A DNA stretch of 64,000 nt from Escherichia coli (GTDB taxonomy: Bacteria; Pseudomonadota; Gammaproteobacteria; Enterobacterales; Enterobacteriaceae): the NCBI RefSeq assembly GCF_050920415.1, contig NZ_CP169309.1, one strand, 5' to 3'. Both the position numbers and the translations under genes were made by a program. Below the pieces are notes generated by a model. That model did not search any database. It saw only the letters and a program-made list of their open reading frames with translations, and was not told the origin of the DNA. Within the stretch, counting starts at the first letter, position 1, and every line of letters begins with the position of its first letter. Below, piece by piece: positions 1 to 41,548 of this stretch.

Positions 1-224
1 TAACCCTCAGCAAGAAAGGCCAGCTCAGGGAGTTTTTTCCAGCCCGTAAGTCGTTTATTCAGGTCGAAAGCTGACGGAATTTTTCCGCCCGCGTCATGAA
101 TGCTCAGTGTTTCATTCAGTGCATAGTTCCAGACAAAGCGAGCGCAACCGCACAACTGACGCAACCTTTGCGCCTGCTGGTCAGTGGGGTAGAGCCTGTA
201 TTTATATGCTTTCTGGATTAACAT
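1..224 (-). CDS. tnpB: IS605-family TnpB (OrfB) N-terminal fragment; gene continues beyond window start
   Basis: Reverse strand from ATG at 224 reads MLIQKAYKYRLYPTDQQAQRLRQLCGCARFVWNYALNE..., the characteristic TnpB N-terminus (AYKYRLYPT...FGCxRFVxNxAL); divergent from tnpA; truncated by window edge. Confidence 0.6.
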   Translation of the reverse strand, partial: MLIQKAYKYRLYPTDQQAQRLRQLCGCARFVWNYALNETLSIHDAGGKIPSAFDLNKRLTGWKKLPELAFLAEG

Positions 225-236
225 TTTGCATTCAGT

Positions 237-689
237 ATGTGGTTATTTAGAATGTACAATATATCCACATTTTTTTGGGAGGATCAATACGTGTGCGAAA
301 TCAATCGTTCACGCTATTCAGCTTACCTGTTGCATGTTCACGTTGTTTTTATGACAAAATACCGCCGTCCAGTTTTTGGTGAATTGCATCATGCAAACAT
401 GCGTCAGTATGTAGCGGAGGTATGCGCGGACTTTGGCGCCGAGTTAAAGGAATGTGACGGCGAGGCAGATCATGTTCACATGCTGATTGAATACCCACCG
501 TTGGTGCAACTCACAAAGCTGGTAAACAGCCTTAAGTCCGTTACCAGTAGGCGGCTGCGGAATGATTTTATTGATTTGCGCGCCGCGTATTCAAAGCCCG
601 TACTCTGGTCACGCTCTTATTTCATCGGTTCATGTGGTGGAGCACCGCTGGAAGTTGTGAAAAAGTATATTCAGAATCAGCGTGGCTGA
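237..689 (+). CDS. tnpA: IS200/IS605-family Y1 (HuH) transposase TnpA
   Basis: 150-aa ORF with HVHVVF...KYRRPVF, HuH motif HVHMLIEYPP and C-terminal catalytic Tyr region WSRSYFIGSCGGAPLEVVKKYIQNQ; true start may be an internal Met/GTG (252 or 291). Confidence 0.8.
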   Translation: MWLFRMYNISTFFWEDQYVCEINRSRYSAYLLHVHVVFMTKYRRPVFGELHHANMRQYVAEVCADFGAELKECDGEADHVHMLIEYPPLVQLTKLVNSLKSVTSRRLRNDFIDLRAAYSKPVLWSRSYFIGSCGGAPLEVVKKYIQNQRG

Positions 690-759
690 TAAACTGCGGG
701 CTTAACAGCCCAAATTCCCCTCCCGCCTACGTTGGGGGGGAGTACCCAGTGGAGGAAGG

Positions 760-2061
760 ATGGCTCAGGAAATCGAATTAAAGTTTATTGTTAATCACAG
801 TGCCGTTGAGGCGTTGCGTGACCATCTCAATACGCTGGGCGGCGAGCACCATGACCCCGTGCAGTTGCTGAATATTTACTACGAAACGCTGGATAACTGG
901 CTGCGTGGGCACGACATGGGCTTACGTATCCGTGGCGAAAACGGTCGCTATGAGATGACCATGAAAGTTGCAGGAAGAGTGACAGGCGGCTTACACCAGC
1001 GCCCGGAATATAACGTGGCGTTGAGCGAACCGACGCTCGACCTGGCGCAGTTACCGACGGAAGTCTGGCCGAACGGTGAGTTACCAGCCGATCTCGCGTC
1101 CCGCGTGAAGCCACTGTTCAGCACCGATTTTTATCGCGAAAAATGGTTGGTGGAGGTCGATGGCAGCAGCATTGAAATCGCTCTCGATCAGGGCGAGGTG
1201 AAAGCGGGTGAATTTGCTGAGCCTATCTGCGAGCTGGAACTGGAGTTGCTTAGCGGCGATACGCGCGCGGTACTGAAACTGGCGAACCAACTGGTATCGC
1301 AAACCGGATTACGTCAGGGCAGCCTGAGCAAAGCCGCGCGCGGCTATAATCTGGCGCAGGGCAATCCCGCGCGTGAAATCAAACCGACCACCATTTTGCA
1401 TGTTGCGGCAAAAGCTGATGTGGAACAGGGGCTGGAAGCGGCGCTCGAGCTGGCGTTAGCGCAATGGCAGTATCATGAAGAACTGTGGGTACGTGGCAAC
1501 GATACGGCGAAAGAGCAGGTGCTGGCAGCCATCGGTCTGGTCCGTCATACGCTGATGCTGTTCGGCGGTATTGTGCCGCGTAAAGCGAGCACTCACTTAC
1601 GTGATTTGCTGACTCAATGCGAAGCGACCATCGCTTCAGCGGTGTCTGCCGTAACGGCGGTCTACTCTACCGAAACGGCGATGGCGAAGCTGGCGTTGAC
1701 CGAATGGCTGGTAAGCAAAGCCTGGCAGCCGTTTTTAGATGCCAAAGCGCAGGGCAAAATCAGCGATTCTTTCAAACGCTTTGCCGATATCCATCTTTCC
1801 CGCCATGCCGCTGAACTGAAAAGCGTTTTCTGCCAGCCATTAGGCGATCGCTACCGTGACCAATTGCCGCGCCTGACGCGTGACATTGACTCAATATTGT
1901 TGCTGGCGGGTTACTACGATCCTCTCGTCGCGCAAGCCTGGCTGGAGAACTGGCAGGGACTGCGTCATGCCATTGCGACCGGGCAACGCATTGAAATTGA
2001 ACATTTCCGTAATGAGGCAAACAATCAGGAACCGTTCTGGTTGCACAGCGGAAAACGTTAA
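760..2061 (+). CDS. ygiF: Inorganic triphosphatase (CYTH-CHAD protein)
   Basis: 433-aa ORF recognised as YgiF; RBS GGAGGAAGG upstream; precedes glnE. Confidence 0.9.
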
Positions 2062-2083
2062 TCAGGCAAGGATAAAATCGCTT

Positions 2084-4924
2084 ATGAAGCCGCTCTCTTC
2101 ACCGTTACAGCAGTACTGGCAGACCGTTGTTGAGCGGCTGCCAGCGCCTTTAGCCGAGGAATCACTTAGTGCACAGGCGAAGTCAGTACTTACTTTTAGT
2201 GATTTTCTGCAGGACAGCATAATTGCGCATCCAGAGTGGCTGACGGAACTGGAAAGCCAACCGCCGCAGGCCGACGAATGGCAGCATTACACTGCATGGT
2301 TGCAGGAGGCGCTCAGTAATGTGAGTGACGAAGCCGGGTTAATGCGCGAGCTGCGGCTATTCCGGCGGCGCATTATGGTGCGCATCGCCTGGGCGCAAAC
2401 GCTGGCACTGGTTACTGAAGAGAGCATTTTGCAGCAGCTCAGTCATCTGGCGGAGACGCTGATTGTTGCGGCGCGTGACTGGCTGTATGACGCTTGCTGC
2501 CGCGAGTGGGGAACGCCGTGCAATGCGCAGGGCGAAGCGCAACCGCTGCTGATTTTAGGCATGGGTAAGCTGGGCGGTGGGGAGCTGAATTTCTCCTCAG
2601 ATATCGATCTGATTTTTGCCTGGCCGGAACATGGTTGCACGCAGGGCGGACGCAGGGAACTGGATAACGCTCAGTTCTTTACCCGCATGGGTCAGCGGCT
2701 GATTAAAGTGCTGGATCAACCAACGCAGGATGGCTTCGTCTATCGCGTGGATATGCGACTGCGTCCGTTTGGCGAAAGTGGCCCGCTGGTGCTGAGCTTT
2801 GCGGCACTGGAAGACTATTACCAGGAGCAGGGGCGCGACTGGGAGCGATACGCCATGGTCAAGGCGCGGATTATGGGCGATAGCGACGGCGTCTATGCTA
2901 ACGAGTTGCGTGCGATGCTGCGCCCGTTTGTTTTCCGCCGTTACATCGATTTCAGCGTGATCCAGTCGCTGCGCAACATGAAAGGAATGATTGCCCGTGA
3001 AGTGCGCCGACGCGGTTTGACCGACAACATCAAACTTGGCGCGGGTGGCATTCGCGAAATTGAATTTATCGTCCAGGTATTCCAGCTCATTCGCGGCGGG
3101 CGCGAACCGTCGCTGCAATCGCGCTCTTTACTGCCAACGCTCAGCGCCATTGCCGCGCTGCATCTGCTTTCTGAAAACGATGCTGAACAATTGCGAGTGG
3201 CGTATCTGTTCCTGCGGCGCCTGGAAAACCTGCTGCAAAGCATTAACGACGAACAAACCCAGACACTTCCTTCTGATGAGCTTAACCGTGCGCGGCTGGC
3301 GTGGGCGATGGACTTTGCTGACTGGCCGCAACTGACCGGGGCGCTGACCGGACATATGACCAATGTGCGCCGGGTGTTTAACGAATTGATTGGCGATGAC
3401 GAAAGCGAAACTCAGGAAGAGTCGCTGTCGGAACAGTGGCGTGAGCTGTGGCAGGATGCGTTGCAGGAAGATGACACTACGCCAGTACTGGCGCATCTTA
3501 GCGAAGATGATCGCAAACAGGTGCTAACACTGATTGCCGATTTCCGCAAAGAGCTGGATAAGCGCACAATCGGGCCGCGAGGACGTCAGGTGCTCGACCA
3601 TCTGATGCCGCATCTGCTAAGTGATGTCTGTGCGCGTGAAGACGCTGCTGTCACGCTGTCGCGCATTACCGCCTTGCTGGTGGGGATTGTTACCCGCACT
3701 ACCTATTTAGAATTGCTTAGTGAATTCCCCGCGGCGCTTAAGCATTTGATTTCTCTGTGTGCCGCATCGCCGATGATTGCCAGCCAACTGGCGCGTTATC
3801 CATTATTGCTGGACGAACTGCTCGATCCAAACACTCTCTACCAGCCGACGGCGACGGATGCCTACCGTGATGAACTGCGCCAGTATTTGCTGCGCGTGCC
3901 GGAAGATGACGAAGAGCAACAGCTTGAGGCGCTGCGTCAGTTCAAACAGGCGCAACTTTTACGCATCGCGGCGGCGGATATCGCCGGTACGCTACCGGTC
4001 ATGAAAGTGAGCGATCACTTAACCTGGCTGGCAGAAGCCATGATAGATGCTGTCGTACAACAGGCATGGGTTCAAATGGTTGCCCGCTACGGTAAGCCAA
4101 ATCACCTGAACGAACGCGAAGGGCGTGGTTTTGCGGTGGTCGGCTACGGCAAGCTGGGCGGCTGGGAGTTAGGCTACAGTTCCGATCTTGACCTGATCTT
4201 CCTCCATGATTGCCCAATGGATGCAATGACTGACGGCGAGCGGGAAATCGACGGACGACAGTTTTATCTGCGTCTGGCGCAACGCATTATGCATCTGTTC
4301 AGTACGCGCACCTCTTCCGGCATTTTGTATGAAGTGGATGCTCGACTGCGTCCGTCCGGGGCGGCGGGAATGCTGGTCACCTCTGCAGAAGCGTTTGCCG
4401 ATTATCAGAAAAACGAGGCCTGGACGTGGGAACATCAGGCGCTGGTGCGTGCGCGTGTAGTGTACGGCGATCCGCAGCTCACCGCGCACTTTGACGCGGT
4501 GCGTCGCGAGATTATGACGCTGCCGCGTGAAGGTAAAACTCTGCAAACGGAAGTGCGGGAAATGCGCGAGAAAATGCGCGCTCATCTCGGCAATAAACAT
4601 CGCGATCGCTTTGATATCAAAGCCGATGAAGGCGGAATTACCGATATCGAATTTATTACCCAATATCTGGTGTTGCGCTACGCTCATGAAAAACCGAAGT
4701 TAACGCGCTGGTCAGACAACGTGCGTATTCTGGAGCTGCTGGCGCAAAACGACATTATGGAAGAGCAGGAAGCGATGGTGCTGACCCGTGCTTACACTAC
4801 GCTGCGCGATGAACTTCATCATCTGGCATTACAGGAATTGCCGGGCCATGTGTCGGAGGATTGCTTCACCGCAGAGCGTGATCTGGTGCGGGCAAGCTGG
4901 CAGAAGTGGCTGGTGGAAGAATGA
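2084..4924 (+). CDS. glnE: Bifunctional glutamine synthetase adenylyltransferase / adenylyl-removing enzyme
   Basis: 946 aa from ATG 2084 (track ORF 1880.. is a 5' extension overlapping ygiF); duplicated nucleotidyltransferase motifs [18 protein letters not shown] and [18 protein letters not shown]. Confidence 0.95.
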
Positions 4925-6405: not shown

Positions 6406-6485
6406 CCGGAAAGCGGTTCACAGTTCTCGCGTTGTGCCGGATAGTCCTATTGACGCTGTTGTTTTTTCAACCTAAAGTAAAGGAA

Positions 6486-6627
6486 CAAGGGTAAGGGAGG
6501 ATTTCTCCCCCCTCTGAATGGCCGTTAATAAGCGTGGAAACTTATCAGTAACAGCACAATCAGTATGATGACGAACTTCATCATAACCCTTTCCTTATAC
6601 AAGGCCCCTTCTTCGGGAGGGGCTTTC
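6486..6627 (+). ncRNA. sib: Sib-type antisense sRNA (antitoxin of ibs), copy 1
   Basis: Promoter TTGACG-17 bp-TAAAGT at about 6450-6478; fully overlaps the ibs ORF on the opposite strand; terminator hairpin GCCCCTtcttcgggAGGGGC followed by TTT at about 6604-6626. Confidence 0.55.
6525..6584 (-). CDS. ibs: Ibs-family small hydrophobic toxin (19 aa, MMKFVIILIVLLLISFHAY)
   Basis: 19-codon ORF on minus strand, translated by hand; too short for the ORF track; matches the Ibs toxin pattern MMK-hydrophobic-SF-AY. Confidence 0.7.
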   Translation of the reverse strand: MMKFVIILIVLLLISFHAY

Positions 6628-6861
6628 CCGTTTCAGCCCCTTGCTGATTCCCCGATTGTTGATGAGCGCCAGACCCCGCGCAATGCTTTCCCTGATGCAC
6701 TTTTCTCTTCCCCGAGTCGGCTCGCAAAACGCTGTAACAACCTGATCATTTGTACTTTTTAGCGGAACGCAGATATAAAAAATCCCCGGCTTTTTGGGCC
6801 AGGGATATGTGTTAATGAAACCTTCTTGACGCTGATTTTTTTTCAACCTAAAGTAAAGGAA

Positions 6862-7003
6862 CAAGGGTAAGGGAGGATTTCTCCCCCCTCTGAATTGGTT
6901 GTTAGTAAGTCGGGAAACTTAACAGTAACAACACAATCAGTATGATGACGAACTTCATCATAACCCTTTCCTTATACAAGGCCCCTTCCTCGGGAGGGGC
7001 TTT
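6862..7003 (+). ncRNA. sib: Sib-type antisense sRNA (antitoxin of ibs), copy 2
   Basis: Promoter TTGACG-17 bp-TAAAGT at about 6826-6854; terminator GCCCCTtcctcgggAGGGGC followed by TTT at about 6981-7003. Confidence 0.55.
6902..6961 (-). CDS. ibs: Ibs-family small hydrophobic toxin (19 aa, MMKFVIILIVLLLLSFPTY)
   Basis: 19-codon minus-strand ORF in the second repeat unit, translated by hand. Confidence 0.7.
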   Translation of the reverse strand: MMKFVIILIVLLLLSFPTY

Positions 7004-7199
7004 CCCGTTTCAGCCCCTTGCTGACTCCCCGATTGTTGATGAGCGCCAGACCCCGCGCAATGCTTTCTCTTATGCAGTTTTCTCTTCCCCGAGTCGGCTC
7101 GCAAAACGCTGTAACAACCTGATCATTTGTACTTTTTAGCGGAACACAGATATAAAAAATCCCCGACTTTTTGGGCCAGGGATGTTCATGGTTGAAAAT

Positions 7200-38295: not shown

Positions 38296-39213
38296 AAGGG
38301 ATAAAAAATAAATGCCTTTCGCTATCTGTCAGGGCGAATCTCACCATTTGCTATACCTTCCATTGGCGATGAACAGTATTCTACACGCACTTTTTTTACG
38401 ATTGCGTTGAAGCATTACAACGCCCGCGCCATCCGCGCGTTTAGCCGCTTTCTGCAAGGAAATTCCTCAAAAGCGTAGGAATATCGCGCGATTGTTCATC
38501 AAAAAAATCCACTGCAGCAGATGTACCGGGGAATAAGTTTGCCAATTCGTTTTAGTGAAGAAGAGATCGCCCGCCACATTGTTGCCGCTCGCGAGATAAG
38601 CCTCACCTTGCTGCCCCTGATGCCAGAATTATTAAACGAAGAGGCGTATGAAAATGTCATTGATGCTAATGACAGCGCAACGCTGAAGGCTTTTTGGCAG
38701 ATCCAGCTGCCGCCCACGCCGGTTTTACGCCTGGAAACGATGTCGGTAATTCCCATGACAGCGGCACTGGTTCAACAGGTGAGGGAGTCACCAAAGCGGC
38801 TTGAACTGGAAGATAAAAGTGGCAGGACAGTACTAACTTACATCGTGCGCTTTGGGAATATTGCCGCAGTACAGGCACTGATTGACGCTAATCTGATCGA
38901 CTGGCAACGGCTCCGCCAATCGACAGGAAGGTCAACACCATTATTACTGGCGATCTGGCGACAAAAATACGACGATGATTATGTAATCTTCCCATTGATT
39001 TTAAAGGACATGCTGGCAAAAAATGCGCCACCCTCAGCAGAGGAAATAATGAACTGCATTAAGGATGGTATGACCGCAGATGATTTTTTATCTGCCGGAA
39101 TGAGCAACACGCAATTCTGTTCTGCGATTGAACAAAGCCTCCAGGCGAAAACGTCAGTATTACCGGCGAATCGATTACGCCATCTGCAATCCTCGCGGTG
39201 TGCAAAGCTGTAA
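38296..39213 (+). pseudogene. 5'-truncated, amber-interrupted paralogue of the upstream ankyrin-like gene
   Basis: Track ORF 38521..39213 (230 aa) aligns to the C-terminal half of the 474-aa protein; the same frame upstream reads ...TRTFFTIALKHYNARAIRAFSRFLQGNSSKA-TAG(38476..38478)-EYRAIVHQKNPLQQ-M..., matching TPFMAAIQNHNIHSVRFFSQLLMGNSPKAKNNRDIVRRANPL of the full-length gene. Confidence 0.5.
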
Positions 39214-39328
39214 CCAACCGGAAGTTAAGTCATCCGCTGAAAACATCGCATTAACTTTTCGATTTCTCTTTCGTTCCGGCTTATAATCCCCGGCCTTTGA
39301 TTATTTTTTTATCATTTCTGGAAGCAAA

Positions 39329-41548
39329 ATGAGCTCTATCTCCCTGATCCAACCGGATCGCGACCTGTTCTCCTGGCCGCAGTACTGGGCCGCCTGTTTT
39401 GGACCGGCACCGTTTTTGCCGATGTCTCGTGAAGAGATGGATCAACTTGGCTGGGATAGCTGCGACATCATTTTGGTTACTGGCGACGCGTATGTCGATC
39501 ACCCAAGCTTCGGGATGGCGATTTGCGGTCGTATGCTGGAAGCGCAGGGCTTCCGTGTCGGGATCATCGCCCAGCCAGACTGGAGCAGCAAAGACGACTT
39601 TATGCGTCTGGGTAAACCGAATCTGTTTTTCGGTGTTACTGCTGGCAACATGGACTCGATGATCAACCGCTATACTGCCGATCGCCGTTTACGTCATGAC
39701 GATGCCTACACGCCGGATAACGTTGCGGGTAAGCGCCCGGATCGCGCCACACTGGTTTACACCCAACGTTGTAAAGAGGCGTGGAAAGATGTGCCGGTGA
39801 TCCTCGGCGGTATTGAGGCTAGTTTGCGTCGTACCGCGCATTATGATTACTGGTCTGATACCGTGCGCCGTTCCGTGCTGGTGGATTCCAAAGCCGACAT
39901 GCTGATGTTCGGTAACGGTGAGCGTCCGCTGGTGGAAGTGGCGCATCGTCTGGCGATGGGTGAGCCGATTAGTGAAATCCGCGATGTGCGTAATACTGCG
40001 ATTATCGTAAAAGAGGCGTTGCCAGGCTGGAGCGGCGTGGATTCCACCCGTCTCGATACCCCAGGGAAAATCGACCCGATCCCGCATCCGTATGGCGAAG
40101 ATCTGCCGTGCGCGGATAACAAACCTGTTGCGCCGAAAAAGCAGGAAGCGAAAGCCGTAACCGTGCAGCCGCCGCGCCCGAAACCGTGGGAAAAAACCTA
40201 CGTATTGCTGCCTTCTTTCGAGAAAGTGAAGGGCGATAAAGTGCTGTACGCCCATGCTTCGCGCATTCTGCACCACGAAACCAACCCTGGCTGCGCCCGC
40301 GCATTGATGCAAAAACACGGCGACCGCTATGTGTGGATCAACCCGCCTGCTATCCCGCTTTCTACCGAAGAGATGGACAGCGTCTTTGCGCTGCCGTACA
40401 AGCGCGTGCCGCATCCGGCTTACGGTAATGCCCGAATTCCGGCTTACGAAATGATCCGTTTCTCGGTCAACATTATGCGTGGCTGCTTTGGCGGCTGCTC
40501 TTTCTGCTCTATTACCGAGCATGAAGGTCGCATTATTCAGAGCCGTTCGGAAGATTCGATCATCAACGAGATTGAAGCGATCCGCGACACCGTGCCAGGC
40601 TTTACGGGCGTGATTTCCGATCTCGGTGGGCCAACTGCCAACATGTATATGTTGCGCTGCAAATCGCCGCGCGCCGAGCAGACTTGCCGCCGTTTATCGT
40701 GCGTTTACCCGGATATTTGTCCTCATATGGACACTAACCACGAACCGACGATCAACCTCTATCGCCGCGCGCGTGATCTGAAAGGCATTAAAAAGATCCT
40801 CATCGCTTCCGGCGTGCGTTATGATATCGCCGTGGAAGATCCGCGCTATATCAAAGAGCTGGCGACCCATCACGTTGGCGGTTATCTGAAGATTGCCCCG
40901 GAACATACCGAAGAAGGGCCGTTATCGAAGATGATGAAGCCGGGCATGGGCAGCTATGACCGCTTTAAAGAGCTGTTCGATACTTACTCGAAACAGGCAG
41001 GTAAAGAGCAATATCTGATCCCGTATTTCATCTCCGCACACCCGGGTACGCGTGATGAAGATATGGTGAATCTGGCGCTGTGGCTGAAAAAGCATCGCTT
41101 CCGTCTCGACCAGGTACAGAACTTCTACCCGTCGCCGTTGGCTAACTCCACCACCATGTATTACACCGGGAAAAACCCGCTGGCGAAGATTGGTTACAAG
41201 AGTGAAGACGTCTTCGTACCGAAGGGCGACAAACAGCGTCGTTTGCATAAAGCGTTGTTGCGTTACCACGATCCGGCAAACTGGCCGTTAATCCGTCAGG
41301 CGCTGGAAGCGATGGGTAAAAAGCATCTGATTGGCAGCCGTCGTGATTGCTTAGTGCCTGCGCCAACCATTGAAGAGATGCGCGAAGCCCGCCGTCAGAA
41401 CCGCAATACCCGTCCGGCGTTGACTAAACATACGCCGATGGCGACCCAGCGTCAGACACCTGCTACGGCAAAAAAAGCGTCGTCTACGCCATCTCGCCCG
41501 GTGAATGCTGGCGCGAAGAAACGCCCTAAAGCGGTGGCAGGTCGTTAA
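39329..41548 (+). CDS. ygiQ: Radical SAM protein YgiQ (UPF0313)
   Basis: 739-aa ORF; CxxxCxxC-type radical SAM cluster region ([10 protein letters not shown]). Confidence 0.9.

Follow-up and report, generated by a model that had tools for sequence, protein, structure and literature searches.

An ISEc41-type IS200/IS605 element at the start codon of ygiF in Escherichia coli

Introduction

The stretch of Escherichia coli DNA analyzed here (the window; 64,000 nucleotides) opens inside an insertion sequence (IS) of the IS200/IS605 family that lies directly upstream of ygiF, the gene for inorganic triphosphatase, which is followed by glnE. An initial annotation, made from the letters alone, had proposed such an element with divergent tnpA and tnpB genes immediately upstream of ygiF, and both the domain matches described below and the RefSeq annotation of carrier genomes ("IS200/IS605-like element ISEc41 family transposase", then "RNA-guided endonuclease InsQ/TnpB family protein", then ygiF) bear this out. 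An ISEc41-type element is already annotated at this position, and nothing in it departs from established IS200/IS605 and TnpB biology; the ISEc41 label as used here is the RefSeq protein name and does not denote nucleotide identity to the ISfinder reference. We found no characterization of ISEc41, of TnpB in connection with CFT073, or of a CCAT target-adjacent motif (TAM) in the literature. What we add is the precise position of the junction with the ygiF start codon, the CCAT target and putative TAM, covariation in a predicted omega-RNA, and the pattern of the element in the population; the annotation of the element itself gains exact limits, the real catalytic tyrosine, a likely tnpA start, and CCAT as the family target and putative TAM.

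Results

We conclude that the IS605-type element which abuts the ygiF ATG is very probably structurally complete, with a length of 1,842 bp, and that positions 1-759 of the window are its tnpA-proximal 41%. The window belongs to E. coli MFDS1022581 (NZ_CP169399.1, from 704625 onward); a locus from this source genome (L052) is identical to window positions 1-4760 and gave access to the sequence beyond the window's left edge. The features at the locus are as follows.

1..224, minus strand: 5' part of tnpB, codons 1-74 of 401, running off the window's left edge (translation, domain matches)
225..290, no strand: divergent tnpB/tnpA control region with promoter-like sites (consensus scan)
291..689, plus strand: tnpA, Y1 HUH transposase, probable start GTG 291; HUH motif 471-479, Tyr 666-668, Gln 678-680
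690..759, minus strand: left end (LE) of the element, tnpB-sense 5'-CCTTCCTCCACTGGGTACTCCCCCCCAACGTAGGCGGGAGGGGAATTTGGGCTGTTAAGCCC... (family alignment, empty sites, folds of single-stranded DNA)
751..759, plus strand: IS-derived Shine-Dalgarno (SD) sequence GGAGGAAGG, in place of the native TAAAGGC(C/T) before the ygiF ATG
760..763, minus (active) strand: target tetranucleotide 5'-CCAT-3', present in empty sites, also the putative TnpB TAM
760..2061, plus strand: ygiF (inorganic triphosphatase), then glnE, directly downstream of tnpA
left of the window, about 1,082 bp (L052/L001 2918-4000): remaining tnpB codons, predicted omega-RNA scaffold and right end (RE)

Insertion junction and target

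The junction is fixed by comparison of empty and filled sites. The empty site of K-12 runs ...GTAAAGGCC straight into ATGGCT and that of MS20654 runs ...GTAAAGGCT into ATGGCT, so that in combined form GTAAAGGC(C/T) is joined to ATGGCT, while in carriers ...GTAAAGGC(C/T) is followed by the element, TTGACATCC...GGAGGAAGG, and only then by ATGGCT. The element thus ends at position 759 and the A of the ygiF ATG is position 760, which places the insertion between -1 and the start codon. The initial annotation had put the end of the element 15-70 bp before ygiF, an arrangement in which the native ribosome-binding site and possibly the promoter would be kept and upstream regulation would only be perturbed. 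The ATG is indeed 70 bp past the tnpA stop, and the hairpins reach only to about position 742; however, the K-12 and MS20654 empty sites leave no such gap, positions 743-759 align with the left-end termini of plasmid relatives, and nothing of positions 690-759 was found in IS-free strains. The empty/filled comparison refutes that placement, to which we give next to no credence.

The same comparison reveals no target duplication and places the insertion, read on the tnpB-sense strand, 3' of CCAT. At ygiF this CCAT is the complement of ATGG, i.e., the start codon plus one base. In K-12-type empty alleles, which have C at -1, the site is the palindrome CCATGG with CCAT on both strands, and the element used the strand antisense to ygiF.

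Completeness of the element and TnpB

On the minus strand, positions 1-224 translate to MLIQKAYKYRLYPTDQQAQRLRQLCGCARFVWNYALNE... as 74 stop-free codons, and the reading frame does not end in a stop just past the window edge but continues as an uninterrupted 401-aa tnpB in the source genome and six other carriers. The protein carries the Pfam domains HTH_OrfB_IS605, OrfB_IS605 and the Cas12f1-like TNB zinc ribbon, matches NCBIfam guided_TnpB at 355 bits (cut-off 100), and aligns over its full length (residues 2-379) with the TnpB of ISDra2 from Deinococcus radiodurans (8exa/8h1j; E 7e-49). The RuvC D-E-D triad is complete, with GLDAGI, IEDL and ANAD at the positions of ISDra2 D191, E278 and D361; both CxxC pairs of the zinc ribbon are present, and the catalytic residues are kept in 7 of 7 alleles. 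Unlike ISDra2 TnpB, the protein has an insertion of about 15 aa after the catalytic Glu. As a whole the element measures 1,842 bp (1,841 bp in the Nissle/CFT073 allele). It lacks terminal inverted repeats; each end instead carries a subterminal imperfect palindrome, and both palindromes are on the same strand.

One could instead see here a decayed remnant with a truncated or pseudogenized tnpB, given that only 74 tnpB codons lie inside the window, that the left-end palindrome of the ygiF copy is imperfect, that constraint on tnpB appears relaxed among alleles, and that a 63-nt remnant does occupy the ygiF site in ten genomes. Against this, TnpB is uninterrupted and TnpA intact with catalytic residues kept, in the source genome and in six other carriers, and both element ends match the family consensus. 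As to structural completeness the remnant interpretation is refuted, and overall we regard it as very improbable.

TnpA and the divergent control region

TnpA matches Pfam Y1_Tnp (6.8e-39) and NCBIfam transpos_IS200 (139.9 bits; cut-off 55) and is similar to the TnpA structures of IS608 from Helicobacter pylori (2a6m; E 2e-20), with which it shares the Y1 HUH type and a catalytic Tyr on the C-terminal helix. The HUH motif named in the initial annotation holds up (DHVHML, positions 471-479, aligned to IS608 H64/H66), but the catalytic Tyr had been assigned to WSRSYF, whose Tyr aligns to IS608 C111. The catalytic residue is instead in VVKKYIQNQ, where Y144 (positions 666-668) aligns to IS608 Y127 and Q148 (678-680) to Q131.

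The complete tnpA open reading frame (ORF) spans positions 237-689 on the plus strand (150 aa), and the start codons had been described as about a dozen bp apart. This is true of the longest ORF, which is also the RefSeq call (ATG 237; tnpB ATG at 224-222), but not of the start that we consider likely, GTG 291, for which the spacing is 66 bp. We favor GTG 291 (132 aa) because conservation in seven family TnpAs begins at ...V(C/H/Q)EINRSR, which is GTG 291 in the ygiF copy; because an SD sequence, GGGAGG at 277-282, lies eight bases upstream of it; because the NCBIfam profile is matched along its whole length by the 132-aa form; and because a promoter-like site would start transcription downstream of ATG 237. 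With this start, the divergent control region would be 66 bp rather than 12 bp. A consensus promoter scan gave 4 sites where 1.0 was expected; these include TTTGCA-17-TAGAAT at 225-253, directed toward tnpA and ygiF and the only such site on the plus strand, and TTGATC-18-TATATT at 287-258 on the minus strand, directed toward tnpB. Among IS alleles, the control region differs only at position 283, in or next to the tnpA SD (GGGAGGA vs GGGAGGG), and at position 245, which lies within the promoter-like site, in the spacer close before its -10 hexamer.

Family ends and comparison with IS608

Relatives were collected as plasmid elements 70-78% identical to the ygiF copy (Citrobacter, Klebsiella, E. 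coli, Salmonella, Arsenophonus) together with copies in Xenorhabdus, Aeromonas and a metagenome-assembled genome (MAG) of Rhodocyclaceae. Elements covering at least 80% of the query were present on 467 plasmids of Enterobacterales, and the full-length ones examined fall within this range of identity. These plasmid relatives share gene order, ends and CCAT target with the ygiF copy, which differs from them in being chromosomal and single-copy and in showing over 20% divergence from each of the plasmid copies seen. With nhmmer profiles of the ends, no ends were recognized in TnpB relatives at 60% identity or less from the genome scan, and those loci were left out.

In 11 independent contexts (plasmids of Klebsiella, E. 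coli, Salmonella, Citrobacter and Arsenophonus, the chromosomes of Xenorhabdus and the Rhodocyclaceae MAG, and an IS-sized Aeromonas contig), the tnpB-sense strand has 5'-CCAT before the left end in ten and CTAT in one. The right end always finishes ...GATGTCAA, in the family form ...GGTGGGGGAGGATGTCAA with the junction directly after ...GGAGGATGTCAA, and is ordered as GAAT, an imperfect hairpin, 9-10 nt, and TCAA. On the same strand the palindromes are CTCCCGCC-loop-GGCGGGAG (left-end consensus) and CCCCCTCC-loop-GGTGGGGG (right end), and the left-end cleavage site lies about 17 nt (17-19 nt) before the homologous hairpin. IS608 has the right guide (GR) GAAT and the right cleavage site (CR) TCAA (PMC5934647), and the ygiF element resembles it in having identical GR and CR tetranucleotides in the order GAAT, hairpin, about 10 nt, TCAA, a left-end cleavage site some 17-19 nt before the hairpin, subterminal imperfect palindromes, and insertion 3' of a tetranucleotide with no target duplication. 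It is unlike IS608 in that tnpA and tnpB are divergent and not co-directional, the target is CCAT and not TTAC, the hairpin sequences differ, and the left-end palindrome of the ygiF copy contains a C.C mismatch.

Of the two subterminal hairpins after tnpA, the GGGCT/AGCCC stem (698-711) is intact, but the main left-end palindrome (720-742) has, besides the C.C mismatch, an extra C. As single-stranded DNA it forms a fold with a stability no greater than that of shuffled sequence (z = -0.5), as compared to z = -3.5 for a relative; the right end gives z = -2.7. Mismatches at the same stem position (A.C, T.T) are carried by other family members, including multi-copy plasmid ones.

Two candidate features were set aside. 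Because ATGG is the complement of CCAT and a GGAG in the left end precedes the site by 5-9 nt, we asked whether the family targets start codons, and rejected this: a long ORF starts at the target ATG only at ygiF among 10 insertion sites. A left guide GGTA pairing with CCAT, by analogy with IS608, is unproven, in that its variants (GATA, GGGA, GGTG) show no covariation with the target, and the CTAT site alters the wrong position.

Three loci among the plasmid relatives deserve mention. On Klebsiella-type plasmids (L007 3332-3556 and 3777-4751; L011 1-231), family members are nested, with one copy inside the zinc-ribbon region of another TnpB gene, and two different family variants on these plasmids have a common right-end flank, GTAGCTGAACATTTCCAGGAA. 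On an E. coli plasmid (L004 3502-4466 and 5063-6852), a truncated family copy (partial tnpB and tnpA) has umuDC on one side and, on the other, a CRISPR array accompanied by a Csf2 (type IV) gene.

Predicted omega-RNA and guide

A guide RNA had been expected at the tnpB 3' end, outside the window, and a covarying RNA structure is found there. In an alignment of the last 170 nt before the right-end terminus from 13 family members, the RNAalifold consensus has 42 pairs, 14 of them with compensatory double changes; 94.2% of cells are paired on the consensus vs 40-49% when partners are slid by 1-3 columns, and none of 500 column shuffles reached the observed covariation. The region from the single sequence folds with z = -4.7. 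By analogy with IS608 and ISDra2, TnpB would bind an omega-RNA that takes in the final ~170 nt of tnpB together with the right end, and the guide would be the 16 nt after TCAA on the ygiM side (GGCCTTTACTTATCGG in the window strain), with CCAT as the TAM. As in ISDra2, the predicted structured RNA extends over both the 3' end of tnpB and the right end, and the guide begins past the right-end cleavage site; unlike ISDra2, for which the TAM is TTGAT, the putative TAM of the ygiF element has 4 nt, and the omega-RNA sequences are not recognizably similar. TAM plus guide correspond exactly to the empty ygiM-ygiF allele, while the occupied allele has TCAA, not CCAT, before the guide-matching DNA; TnpB would thus be predicted to cut exactly the empty allele. 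No further copies of the element ends or of the guide target were found in the window.

Expression of ygiF and glnE

The native 241-bp ygiM-ygiF intergenic region, with its weak SD, is now 1.84 kb from ygiF, beyond a head-on tnpB, and the native 5' untranslated region, ribosome-binding site and promoter of ygiF are all displaced. The effect on ygiF is larger than the initial annotation had stated. In the minimum-free-energy fold of the predicted mRNA, GGAGGAAGG is unpaired, and we propose that ygiF would be translated from this IS-borne sequence. Within the terminal 15 nt of the left end, the ygiF copy differs from its closest relative at 4 positions (CCTTCCTCCACTGGG vs CTTTACTCCAAAGGG), and these four changes make the strong SD; that they represent adaptation is speculation.

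No terminator-like site was found within positions 1-900, and hence none between tnpA and ygiF, so that ygiF and glnE may be co-transcribed by read-through from the tnpA promoter region. Judged from sequence, such read-through is most probably the source of ygiF transcription and is its most economical explanation. One could also envision another promoter, either facing outward in the 3' part of tnpA or the left end, or internal and driving glnE such that ygiF expression is dispensable. The weakness of the promoter scan (9/12 matches) would be compatible with this, as would the observation that the native K-12 intergenic region also lacks a consensus promoter facing ygiF, and we found nothing usable in the literature on the native ygiF promoter. 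However, the consensus scan found no plus-strand promoter-like site at 254-759, and tnpA and ygiF have no terminator in between. We consider a separate promoter possible but rather unlikely, and retain read-through from the tnpA promoter region.

Distribution and divergence

When positions 1-760 were compared by megablast with 5,426 complete E. coli genomes, 146 matched, each with at least 99% identity and with the junction covered, and all 146 carry the RefSeq annotation quoted in the Introduction. The full element is present in 146-148 of these genomes, single-copy, chromosomal, and always at the same nucleotide at ygiF. Ten further genomes (e.g., RM14723, L006 2501-2563) have the 63-nt remnant at the same site, composed of 45 nt of the right end and 18 nt of the left end joined across a GGGGGA microhomology to leave one hybrid hairpin; it retains the IS-derived SD, GGAGGAAGG, before ygiF. 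With both termini of the element retained (the right one as TCAA) and a single hybrid hairpin, it resembles the palindrome-associated transposable element (PATE)-like and miniature inverted-repeat transposable element (MITE)-like miniatures of IS200/IS605, but unlike these it is the product of a single in-situ deletion and has not multiplied.

Divergence among the IS alleles of seven carriers is 0-0.87%, while for nearby genes of these strains it reaches 4.1% (cca), 5.6% (ygiF) and 5.5% (glnE). The window strain and the carrier 2013C-4282, which are 96.4-98.8% identical over 50 kb, are identical over positions 1-889. On the evidence of these sequences, the IS lineage is much younger than the surrounding backgrounds. 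Such low IS divergence alongside high flank divergence implies that the IS moved between backgrounds, or that flanks were replaced around it, by homologous recombination. Among the variable tnpB codons in these alleles, 13 are nonsynonymous and 6 synonymous, and all reading frames are intact.

Positions 891-2890 (the 3' part of ygiF and 5' part of glnE) are a rare allele, with at least 99% identity in 2 of the 5,426 genomes and at most 96% in all others; the window strain matches other IS carriers perfectly as far as position 889, after which identity falls to about 95%. This suggests that the segment adjoining the IS past position 889 is mosaic or imported.

Elsewhere in the window

Positions 6450-7184 hold two tandem repeats of about 360 bp that are approximately 95% identical, each with an Ibs type I toxin gene (6526-6585 and 6903-6962, from the annotation of a related genome); this is an ordinary ibs/sib duplication. 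At about 38390-40750, coordinates and annotation being those of a related genome (L051), genes for a 474-aa hypothetical protein and an ankyrin-repeat protein lie between ftsP and ygiQ and may be a small accessory insert of that genome.

Discussion

The history most consistent with these observations would begin with insertion by single-strand "peel and paste" transposition, as known from IS608 and ISDra2, after which homologous recombination of the flanks, and not further transposition, would have spread the occupied allele among E. coli backgrounds. The element behaves as sedentary, with one copy that is always at the ygiF site. Its weakened left-end palindrome, the position of its active strand relative to replication (see below) and the preponderance of nonsynonymous changes in tnpB all speak for this. 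As a cause of the immobility, the mismatch in the left end is no more than suggestive.

Alternatively, the presence of the element at one site could be driven by homing, in which TnpB with its omega-RNA cuts empty CCAT plus GGCCTTTACTTATCGG alleles, which are then repaired from an IS-bearing copy. The exact match of predicted guide and TAM to the empty allele, the intact catalytic triad of TnpB, and the existence of IS alleles no more than 0.9% apart in backgrounds 3-5% apart are all what such a process would produce. However, ordinary recombination explains the pattern equally well, as the ygiM/intergenic and ygiF 5' flanks are 98.7-99.8% identical across E. coli; carriers make up only 2.7% of genomes, which argues against efficient drive; and the evolution of tnpB is nearly neutral. 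TnpB-assisted homing is thus possible but not required, and as the driver of same-site presence we regard it as unlikely, preferring spread by ordinary recombination of flanks.

Several points weigh against the account of a complete element that supplies ygiF with its signals, encodes a guided TnpB, and was carried between backgrounds by recombination. The promoter assignments are weak consensus matches, as stated above. An E-value-mode search of the whole element and its flanks gave no match in Rfam, so the omega-RNA is supported by covariation instead, and because the region is partly coding and its last helix is the right-end DNA hairpin, some of this covariation may reflect constraints on DNA or protein. 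We infer the TAM CCAT and the guide from the anatomy of the insertion, by analogy with characterized systems, and cleavage, the transcript, the omega-RNA and transposition are likewise inferred. The low IS and high flank divergence could also come from repeated imports of ygiF/glnE stopping at the IS. In all eight blocks of the window (1-64000) the plus strand shows positive GC skew, which makes plus the leading strand and places the active, tnpB-sense strand on the leading-strand template with tnpB head-on to replication; an active strand on the leading-strand template has been reported as unfavorable for excision and integration (PMC5027513), and the orientation of this insertion is a less usual one for the IS200/IS605 family. 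Finally, the imperfect left-end palindrome and the 13:6 pattern in tnpB make the present-day activity of either protein on this copy uncertain.

Whatever drives transcription, ygiF is without its native 5' region in roughly 3% of complete E. coli genomes, including those of CFT073, Nissle 1917 and ATCC 25922, and in these carriers ygiF, and glnE if co-transcribed, must be expressed from IS-borne signals. This is relevant to work on the triphosphatase, on the control of glutamine synthetase adenylylation, and on the engineering of Nissle. A more far-reaching proposal, which we consider quite improbable, is that the element has been co-opted, with the left end (GGAGGAAGG) and the tnpA promoter serving as ygiF-glnE signals and TnpB with its omega-RNA working as a site-specific drive by which empty alleles are converted or eliminated. 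If true, this would explain why one young IS lineage (at most 0.9% divergence) is found at an identical nucleotide in backgrounds whose neighboring genes are 3-5% apart. Regardless of how it is maintained, the occurrence of full IS, 63-nt remnant and empty allele at a single nucleotide offers a natural test case for the part played by TnpB-guided cleavage in the retention and spread of insertion sequences.

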